IMG/VR virus record: IMGVR_UViG_2585427745_000020
Source: a virus
Lineage: Duplodnaviria; Heunggongvirae; Uroviricota; Caudoviricetes
Strand: one strand, 5' to 3'
Length of the DNA stretch: 51,184 nucleotides
Within the stretch, counting starts at the first letter, position 1. Each line of letters starts with the position of its first letter. A model generated the notes under the pieces. It was not told the origin of the DNA. It saw nothing but the letters and a program-made list of their open reading frames with translations, and did no database searches. Positions 7,165 to 8,168 of the stretch are shown here, in pieces. Made by a program: the position numbers and the translations under genes.

Positions 7165-7764
7165 GTGATTGAGATAGGCGTTATGGCCATCCTGAATCAA
7201 GAGCCAGGAAAAATTGAAAACGTTTTTTCTGACATATCAACATCTATCGAGCGTTCAATTTCAGACTTTGATCGCAGTCATAGCGGCTCTTTGTCTAAAA
7301 AACAGGCTTCTGAAGCTCTTAGCAAGATCTACTGCGTTATGTCACCTGTAGAGGAAGTTTGCAAAAAGTACATTACATTCATTGACATATTAAGTAATGG
7401 TACGGAAGAAGATATTTCCTCACTTGATATTCAACATGACGATGTAGATATGTTGAACGATCAAATATCTAAGCTTGATTATGGTATCGCGAAACTGTTG
7501 TATACCTTCTTCATCGCTGAGAACAGCGATGCGTGGAAGCCCCATATGTCAACTCTTACAACAATGAAAAACCACTCAATAAATACTTTTATAGAATACA
7601 AAAGGCTAACTATGGGGCTTGTGACGCTAGCAATGCAGCACATACCACTATCATATGCTGAACCTGAAGAGTTCACTGAAGAAGAGTTGGCTTCATTCAA
7701 GAAATCAGTTGAAGATTCACATAAAAGATTTGGCATGGAAGCACCAAAATGGAAAACCGCATAA
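7165..7764 (+). CDS. Hypothetical protein, first gene of the AT-rich cassette
   Basis: 199 aa; GTG start (ATG at 7183 is an alternative); no recognised motif; overlaps the next gene by 16 nt. Confidence 0.5.
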   Translation: MIEIGVMAILNQEPGKIENVFSDISTSIERSISDFDRSHSGSLSKKQASEALSKIYCVMSPVEEVCKKYITFIDILSNGTEEDISSLDIQHDDVDMLNDQISKLDYGIAKLLYTFFIAENSDAWKPHMSTLTTMKNHSINTFIEYKRLTMGLVTLAMQHIPLSYAEPEEFTEEELASFKKSVEDSHKRFGMEAPKWKTA

Positions 7765-8168
7765 GCATTGTTGTAGATGCAGCGGCTGGACCATTAGAAC
7801 AATACTTTGCGAAGGCTCTTGCAAACTACAAAAACAGAGGCACCGTTTCAGCTTATCTTGGTAAGATTGGTGGGTTTGAGAGAAACCATCACGCCGTCTT
7901 ATCGGGAATTTACAAGTCGCACATCAGGATCCCTGGAGTAGATGATCCTTGGTTAAAAACAACGCCAATACATCGTAGAGTTAGCGATAACTTTTTGATA
8001 TTTGCGGTACACAACACATATCCAATTCATATCCAGATCATTGCTATCATTAAACCTGATGGTCATGAGAAGGTAAAAAAACTATTGCCAGCCATCATTG
8101 ATATAACTGAAAAAAGATTCCAATCTCTAAATGAGAGGGAGCTTAACTCGTTGATTTCATACAAATAA
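7749..8168 (+). CDS. Putative YafO-family toxin-like protein
   Basis: 139 aa; segments FERNHHAVL and IIAIIKPDGHEK resemble remembered YafO motifs (FERVAHIHL, LIAILKPEPHK); recalled from memory, not searched. Confidence 0.5.
   Translation: MENRISIVVDAAAGPLEQYFAKALANYKNRGTVSAYLGKIGGFERNHHAVLSGIYKSHIRIPGVDDPWLKTTPIHRRVSDNFLIFAVHNTYPIHIQIIAIIKPDGHEKVKKLLPAIIDITEKRFQSLNERELNSLISYK

Follow-up and report, generated by a model that had tools for sequence, protein, structure and literature searches.

A candidate toxin gene of the YafO family and an overlapping candidate antitoxin gene form a conserved accessory pair in a P22-like prophage and other temperate phages

We analysed an overlapping pair of genes, here called g1 and g2, in a 51,184-nucleotide stretch of viral DNA (IMG/VR record IMGVR_UViG_2585427745_000020), which we refer to as the window. 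The window is a P22-like (Lederbergvirus, CUS-3-like) prophage of Escherichia coli, and a second IMG/VR record, UViG_2606217117_000018, matches it exactly, both in content and in length. An initial annotation of this DNA had likened the g2 product to YafO-family toxins and offered two readings of its non-YafN neighbour: a toxin coupled to a new antitoxin, or a toxin fold recruited into a larger system. The genes concerned, and the parts of them discussed below, are listed here by their positions in the window; loci carrying relatives are referred to by L numbers.

7165-7764, plus strand: g1, 199 amino acids.
7165-7641, plus strand: helical core of g1 (residues 1-159), with the motif ERSISDFDRSH (residues 29-39) and the family-wide A118...W124-x-P126-H127.
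7642-7677, plus strand: linker of g1 (residues 160-171), probably flexible, with a mean predicted local distance difference test score (pLDDT) of 57 over residues 161-170; it matches the boundary at which the tail classes diverge.
7678-7761, plus strand: C-terminal tail of g1 (residues 172-199, ...FKKSVEDSHKRFGMEAPKWKTA), class A, proposed toxin-binding segment.
7749-7764, plus strand: 16-nucleotide overlap of g1 and g2 (ATGGAAAACCGCATAA).
7749-8168, plus strand: g2, 139 amino acids.
7920-7922, plus strand: codon of g2 His58, a candidate catalytic residue that does not vary anywhere in the YafO alignment.
8064-8066, plus strand: codon of g2 His106, part of the KPxxH motif; likewise unvarying throughout that alignment and a candidate for catalysis.
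8191-8613, plus strand: g3, 140 amino acids.

The 139-amino-acid open reading frame of g2, with its ATG start, lies where the initial annotation had placed it, as do the two stretches on which the comparison to YafO had been based: FERNHHAVL at residues 43-51 (nucleotides 7875-7901) and IIAIIKPDGHEK at residues 97-108 (nucleotides 8037-8072). The likeness itself was borne out in a profile search. Pfam PF13957 (YafO_toxin) matches g2 with an E value of 1.1e-11 and 45.1 bits, above the gathering cutoff of 25, and the match spans residues 26-122, or positions 2-98 of the 101 in the profile. The g2 relatives in Xenorhabdus and at L012, L013 and L015 likewise match PF13957, and RefSeq names the same protein in E. 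coli genomes “type II toxin-antitoxin system YafO family toxin”. In a single BLASTP comparison, g2 and the YafO of E. coli K-12 were 19% identical over 84 residues (E 0.025), and the NCBIfam equivalog model for E. coli YafO (NF007377) gave 14.2 bits, below its cutoff of 153. By these comparisons g2 belongs to the YafO family as a distant member and is not orthologous to E. coli YafO.

K-12 YafO contains the motifs FERVAHIHL and LIAILKPEPHK, to which the two stretches of g2 had been matched. Only one of these matches stands: IIAIIKPDGHE of g2 is homologous to LIAILKPEPHK and includes the invariant P103 and H106, whereas the “FER” match is out of register, since both BLASTP and MAFFT align K-12 FERVAHIHL with IYK-SHIRI of g2, where the invariant H58 lies, and not with FERNHHAVL. 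In an alignment of 24 sequences from the g2 clade and canonical YafO, there is no variation at G38, H58, L83, P103 and H106, and conservation is at least 90% at R77, S79, D80 and E121. A GxFER motif is invariant only inside the g2 clade, which also carries a C-terminal extension of about 15 residues (F-x-x-L-x-E-x-E-L). Pfam YafO is among 13 RelE/ParE toxin families of the BECR fold with antitoxin-then-toxin gene order (PMC11980606). Canonical YafO has been described as a ribosome-associated mRNA endonuclease that binds the 50S subunit and cuts 11-13 nucleotides downstream of the start codon (PMC7781912), and its ribosome dependence has been questioned (PMC11980606). By analogy, g2 is a candidate mRNA endoribonuclease toxin.

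The upstream gene is a different matter. The overlapping 199-amino-acid reading frame is present at 7165-7764 on the plus strand, and its product is indeed not YafN-like, with no BLASTP alignment to YafN at E ≤ 100. Searches of Pfam, NCBIfam and PDB sequences gave no match for g1, and its sole family assignment is phrog_18235, a PHROG of unknown function. A structure model of g1 (pLDDT 78.8) is all-helical, with helices at residues 14-37, 45-78, 91-119 and 125-159, a low-confidence linker at 161-170 and a last helix at 172-188 followed by GMEAPKWKTA; structural comparison returned only generic matches, none of them informative about the fold. The two proteins of the window differ in charge, g1 being acidic (isoelectric point 4.9) and g2 basic (9.6), a pairing that is not seen in every lineage. 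The g1 family has very few members: 18 representatives were retrieved at E ≤ 0.001 when 1.84 billion representative proteins were searched with a profile, patterns of close g1 relatives picked out three Pectobacterium species and no others from 185,579 species genomes, and a viral scan with query P0086 returned no match. We regard g1 as a candidate antitoxin of a new family, one that very probably neutralises g2.

The two genes form a conserved unit. In the start codon of g2, the first base is also the last of the K195 codon of g1, and the other two open the W196 codon; the 16-nucleotide overlap that results would indicate translational coupling. In the chromosomes of Pectobacterium fontis and Xenorhabdus, g1 and g2 stand alone between housekeeping genes with an identical 16-nucleotide overlap, and neither nearby phage genes nor g3 were found at these loci. 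A PF13957 gene also follows each of the more distant g1 relatives (identity 18-23%), which come from a lambdoid prophage (L012), a nin region (L013, L014) and a chromosomal site (L015, L016). A search from the toxin side found a g2 relative in just one further phage record, a Flyfo siphovirus, where the 190-amino-acid product of the gene upstream of the toxin fits the profile of g1 (hhalign probability 98.4%, E 8.8e-15). When an alignment of the g2 clade was compared with IMG/VR, 72 loci were found, falling into 15 lineages at 80% identity, and hmmsearch identified a g1-family reading frame of 184-211 amino acids directly upstream of the toxin gene at 68 of them. For 66 loci the distance between the two called reading frames is -38 to +6 nucleotides, negative values being overlaps. 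At the remaining four of the 72, the upstream frame is 182-200 amino acids long and has a similar tail, ending in ...HKTLGLDIPSF or ...DSNRRYGING; these are probably divergent g1-family members. The pair is also found in 72 of 5,426 complete E. coli genomes. Across seven lineages, pairwise identities of g1 and g2 are correlated (Pearson 0.90), with g1 diverging faster, though this correlation is descriptive only because the pairs are non-independent. The toxin gene is truncated beside an intact g1 at L016 (1243-1479, 78 amino acids) and at L051 (2992-3330, 112 amino acids, with the N-terminus gone), and a toxin-antitoxin pair would be expected to decay in this direction. The pairing of g1 and g2 is not due to chance.

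The relatives of g1 split into two classes by their C-terminal tails. Class A proteins end in SH(K/I)xLGxxxP(K)W and always precede a YafO-family gene; this tail is present in nearly all of the 68 IMG/VR g1 proteins, and the class B tail in none. Class B proteins end in PEWVxSGxDFVKW... and precede an unrelated protein of 128-130 amino acids (phrog_5954). In a neighbour-joining tree built from residues 1-160 only, the window g1 and its Pectobacterium, Salmonella and Xenorhabdus relatives fall among the class B proteins, and their split from the distant class A proteins received bootstrap support of 197 out of 200. Because the type of tail tracks the family of the downstream gene and not the phylogeny of the g1 core, a tail and its downstream gene were swapped as one onto a shared core, and core meets tail in the predicted flexible, low-pLDDT linker. 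This comparative pattern, the strongest available argument on the point, suggests that g1 touches the downstream gene product with its final 30 or so residues, which is usual for antitoxin tails.

The phrog_5954 proteins belong to no Pfam family and carry the motifs GLPGRNK and HHYHIG. Overlapping pairs of a class B g1 and phrog_5954 occur at L007 (1455-2457), L008 (3388-4387) and L017 (247-1123); at L007 and L008, two different phage types, the pair directly follows an Arc/Mnt gene, and the L017 contig is too short to show neighbours. We also considered phrog_5954 as a very divergent YafO. MAFFT does align two histidines, but the hhalign probability was 0.3% and Pfam gave no match, so we rejected this assignment. 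The phrog_5954 protein may be a second toxin served by the same g1 scaffold.

In the window, g1 and g2 are followed by g3, apparently an accessory gene in its own right. The alignment with CUS-3, at 98.5% identity, ends about 6 nucleotides into g3, near window position 8197, and in CUS-3 the slot of g3 is taken by hkcB, a gene not similar to it. Among the 72 E. coli genomes that carry g1-g2, g3 is present in a single one, MS14385, which has all three genes at 97.7% identity; no g3 relatives were found in 50,697 phage records, and g3 is absent from all other g1-g2 loci examined. Matches of g3 to DUF6435 and to dihydroorotase fell far below cutoffs and were discarded. The gene has a G+C content of 38.8% and is preceded by a strong ribosome-binding site, AAGGAGG, at 8179-8185. 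As g3 is replaced in CUS-3 and missing elsewhere, the module is one of two genes, and the second reading of the initial annotation, in which the toxin fold was recruited into a larger system, finds no support in this distribution.

The surroundings of the pair in the window are those of the P22-like immI region, with the following features.

2600-5305, minus strand: tailspike gene.
5406-6296, minus strand: antirepressor gene ant.
within 6625-6846, minus strand: arc.
6818-6846: promoter-like site TTGAGA-17-TATCAT.
6874-7122, plus strand: mnt, encoding an Arc/Mnt-type ribbon-helix-helix repressor (Pfam Arc 96 bits, Repressor_Mnt 55 bits).
8638-10746, convergent to mnt-g1-g2-g3: gp16-like ejection protein gene.

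The gap between mnt and g1 is 42 nucleotides, and no terminator-like site was found in this interval (7122-7165). We infer that mnt is the probable promoter-proximal gene of a transcript that it shares with g1 and g2. Here g1 and g2 fill the interval between gene 16 and gene 9, in which P22 has sieA and mnt; sieA occupies this interval in only 22 of 66 sequenced P22-like phages (PMC10883804). The G+C content of the cassette genes (7165-8613) is 38-39%. It is 42-43% in mnt, ant and the tailspike gene, 45-49% in the genes for ejection proteins and 47% over the window; the low value of the cassette is consistent with recently acquired accessory DNA. The mechanically called reading frame of arc has 73 amino acids, while its Pfam Arc match starts at residue 25 and the RefSeq gene in MS14385 is 159 nucleotides long; the true start of arc is probably internal to the called frame. 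Elsewhere in the window, a tRNA-Arg gene (anticodon CCT, 1009-1083) is followed on the same strand by a reading frame of 397 amino acids (1209-2402), presumably the integrase of the prophage at its attachment site.

Other copies of the pair lie in quite different positions. The P22-like sieA/mnt slot holds g1-g2 in the window, in CUS-3 and at L025. At L012 the pair directly follows a cI-like repressor gene and precedes gam and recT of a lambdoid prophage, which we take to be the place of rexAB in lambda, and at L013 it lies in the nin region. P2-like phages carry it between replication gene A and the portal and terminase genes, most clearly at L086; L084 and L055 resemble this context, with flanks that are less completely identified. 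The gpA-gpQ interval of P2 is a defence hotspot described by Rousset et al. (PMC9122126). Further copies occupy accessory slots of tail gene clusters, located between the tail tube/DUF6246 genes and the tape measure gene, after the tape measure gene, or between the baseplate hub and spike genes, and others are bare two-gene islets in chromosomes. The pair thus has the character of mobile cargo, an accessory of temperate phages that often lies where anti-phage genes are known to reside, and its location in such slots is only suggestive of a function in defence.

Taken together, these results lead us to propose, with a probability of roughly 0.72, that g1-g2 is a type II-like toxin-antitoxin module with an antitoxin of a new family, carried as a prophage accessory and probably serving in exclusion or maintenance. 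The first reading of the initial annotation, a toxin coupled to a new antitoxin, fits the overlapping unit conserved across more than 15 lineages, the correlated divergence and the concerted change of tail and downstream gene. As in type II modules, the genes are adjacent, co-oriented, coupled and co-inherited. In the mechanism that we envisage, g1 would be made first from a message shared with g2. Free g2 would most likely halt translation in the manner of E. coli YafO, cutting mRNA on the ribosome or close to it, and its putative active site would contain the invariant His58 and His106. The 28-residue tail of g1 (SHKRxGxExPxW), held behind a helical bundle of about 160 residues and a flexible linker, would bind and block g2, and the core might have a second role in oligomerisation, sensing or regulation. 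Because the pair lies 42 nucleotides downstream of mnt in the sieA slot, it is probably expressed in the lysogen, being transcribed together with mnt from the mnt promoter. Any stop in the supply of g1 would then release g2, and the cell would be harmed when that supply stops, whether through infection by another phage (abortive infection or exclusion) or through loss of the prophage (addiction). More tentatively, the g1 family may be a modular sensor-antitoxin scaffold, in which the core senses infection or the state of the prophage and a swappable tail restrains either YafO-type RNases or phrog_5954; g1-g2 could in that case be a new abortive-infection or exclusion system that at least 15 phage lineages keep in their sieA, rex, P2 gpA-gpQ and tail-cluster slots.

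Besides the non-independence of the identity pairs given above, several observations weigh against the proposal of a toxin-antitoxin module. No DNA-binding domain could be detected in g1, in contrast to most type II antitoxins; Pfam gave no helix-turn-helix, ribbon-helix-helix, AbrB or Phd match. Many copies of the pair sit within tail gene clusters, where expression in a lysogen is not obvious, and promoter-like sites in the region of the window around mnt are not commoner than in shuffled sequence. At L061 (IMG/VR UViG_2875262337_000001, 2382-2993) g1 is frameshifted relative to L062 (-1 at 2648 and +1 at 2811, 163 nucleotides apart) beside an intact YafO-family gene. Either the frameshifts are sequencing errors, or an intact toxin gene occurs here naturally without its full-length partner; if they are not errors, a strict dependence of g2 on full-length g1 is disfavoured. 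The structure model of g2 is poor (pLDDT 56.9), which makes its top fold match, a RelE-superfamily toxin, weak evidence. Searches of PDB sequences (2026 copy) with g2 and with a profile of 24 YafO-family proteins found no solved structure of the family, which by this measure appears to have no experimental structure; the matches that were returned for g1, g2 and the family profile (PPAR-gamma, a designed repeat protein and an armadillo-like protein) were discarded as spurious. PADLOC-DB 2.0.0 gave no model match for g2 or g3 and none that was convincing for g1, a marginal PtuB1 match of g1 (E 0.005) being taken as chance because only 1 of 16 family members showed it. Our literature search found no paper describing the g1-g2 pair, with the CUS-3 toxin-antitoxin literature judged by titles, and searches on YafO-like proteins and on YafO with NetFlax or DefensePredictor returned nothing relevant.

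These points have to be set against the alternatives, of which a chance resemblance of g2 to YafO is hardly credible. The 19% identity to K-12 YafO at an E value of 0.025, the 14 bits against 153 for the NCBIfam equivalog and the one motif that is out of register would be compatible with chance, but not the near-full-length Pfam match above cutoff, which recurs in Xenorhabdus and other members of the clade, nor the presence of the family-invariant residues and a RelE-superfamily toxin as top fold match. Very improbable, too, is a three-gene system of g1, g2 and g3 (8191-8613) in which the YafO fold is one effector of a larger machine. The three reading frames are co-oriented, tightly packed and all low in G+C content, and MS14385 has all of them at 97.7% identity; the distribution of g3, with hkcB in its place in CUS-3, a single occurrence in 72 genomes and none in the 50,697 phage records, contradicts a shared function. 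The third gene might instead be mnt, in a triad of the omega-epsilon-zeta type: Mnt would supply the DNA binding, Arc of a superinfecting or induced P22-like phage would repress the mnt promoter, unstable g1 would decay and g2 would be freed. In the immI region of P22, Mnt is made in lysogens and Arc represses Pant and Pmnt. The 42-nucleotide spacing with no terminator-like site between mnt and g1, the lack of a DNA-binding domain in g1, and the relatives of the g1 core that directly follow an Arc/Mnt gene in two other phage types, whatever the downstream gene, all speak for this arrangement. Since most g1-g2 pairs have no adjacent mnt (in chromosomal islets, P2-like loci, tail slots, the cI-adjacent locus and the nin region), Mnt lies outside the conserved unit, and we regard the triad as unlikely.

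It is also possible, though we think it rather improbable, that g1 is no antitoxin at all and is instead a co-factor, a sensor that activates g2 or a co-inherited bystander, with g2 either non-toxic alone or serving the lytic programme, for example in shut-off of host mRNA. At about 200 amino acids with a conserved helical core, g1 is twice the usual size of an antitoxin; many copies of the pair are found in early or late lytic operons (the nin region and tail clusters); L061 combines a broken g1 with an intact g2; and PARIS provides a precedent for a two-gene hotspot system that is no toxin-antitoxin pair (PMC9122126). Against such a role stand the usual marks of antitoxin-toxin pairs, namely the upstream-first order, the overlap of stop and start, a g1 that diverges faster, the acidic and basic charges in the window, the joint swap of tail and downstream gene, and the loss of the toxin with g1 kept, as well as the Pectobacterium and Xenorhabdus islets that have no surrounding phage. 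A two-gene toxin-antitoxin module with a new antitoxin remains the reading that we prefer.

The closest known system is YafN-YafO, encoded in the operon dinB-yafN-yafO-yafP of E. coli K-12. Its toxin shares PF13957 with g2, together with the invariant Gly, the two His, the Pro and the R-x-S-D motif; the antitoxin-then-toxin order is tightly coupled in both systems, and the ribosome-associated cleavage of mRNA may likewise be expected of g2 by analogy. The differences are considerable. K-12 YafO is only about 19-21% identical to g2, which adds the C-terminal 15 or so residues and the GxFER motif; YafN is a protein of 97 amino acids, whereas g1 is a 199-amino-acid helical protein without similarity to it; and the dinB operon is SOS-regulated, whereas g1-g2 is set in a prophage accessory slot. 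The three-component systems omega-epsilon-zeta and PaaR-PaaA-ParE are similar to the window in having a ribbon-helix-helix repressor gene (here mnt), a helical antitoxin candidate without a DNA-binding domain and a toxin gene, but their toxins (a kinase and a gyrase poison) are unrelated to g2, and the likeness is limited to P22-like copies, as Mnt is a phage immI gene that is missing at most g1-g2 loci. With P22 sieA, lambda rexAB and P2 old/tin, g1-g2 shares positions (gene 16-mnt/tailspike, after cI, and gpA-gpQ, respectively) and no relation in sequence or architecture. Some antitoxin domains pair with several toxin families, as Panacea/PanA does. The g1 core resembles this case in being found with at least two unrelated downstream genes, YafO-family and phrog_5954, and differs in having no sequence similarity to DUF4065, in having only two partner families so far seen, and in that its specificity seems to lie in an exchangeable C-terminal tail.

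The toxin family of g2 is known, and g2 was already annotated accordingly; what is new is an undescribed antitoxin family joined to a YafO toxin. Because toxin families are known to change antitoxin partners, we do not rate g1-g2 as a wholly new kind of system. The gain for annotation is modest, in that phrog_18235 and phrog_35514 could become “putative antitoxin of YafO-family toxin”, and the added value lies in the tail-swap pattern, in the phage-accessory and defence-hotspot context, and in a toxin family for which sequence search finds no solved structure. YafO is among the least studied toxins of the RelE superfamily, and the phage-borne g2 clade offers a second natural type of partner for it, opening to study how YafO is neutralised and whether some 30 residues are enough to transfer the specificity of an antitoxin. 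The pair is carried by prophages of uropathogenic and K1 E. coli, such as CUS-3 in RS218 and UTI89, so that what is at issue is the protection of these hosts from phages or the stability of the prophages themselves.

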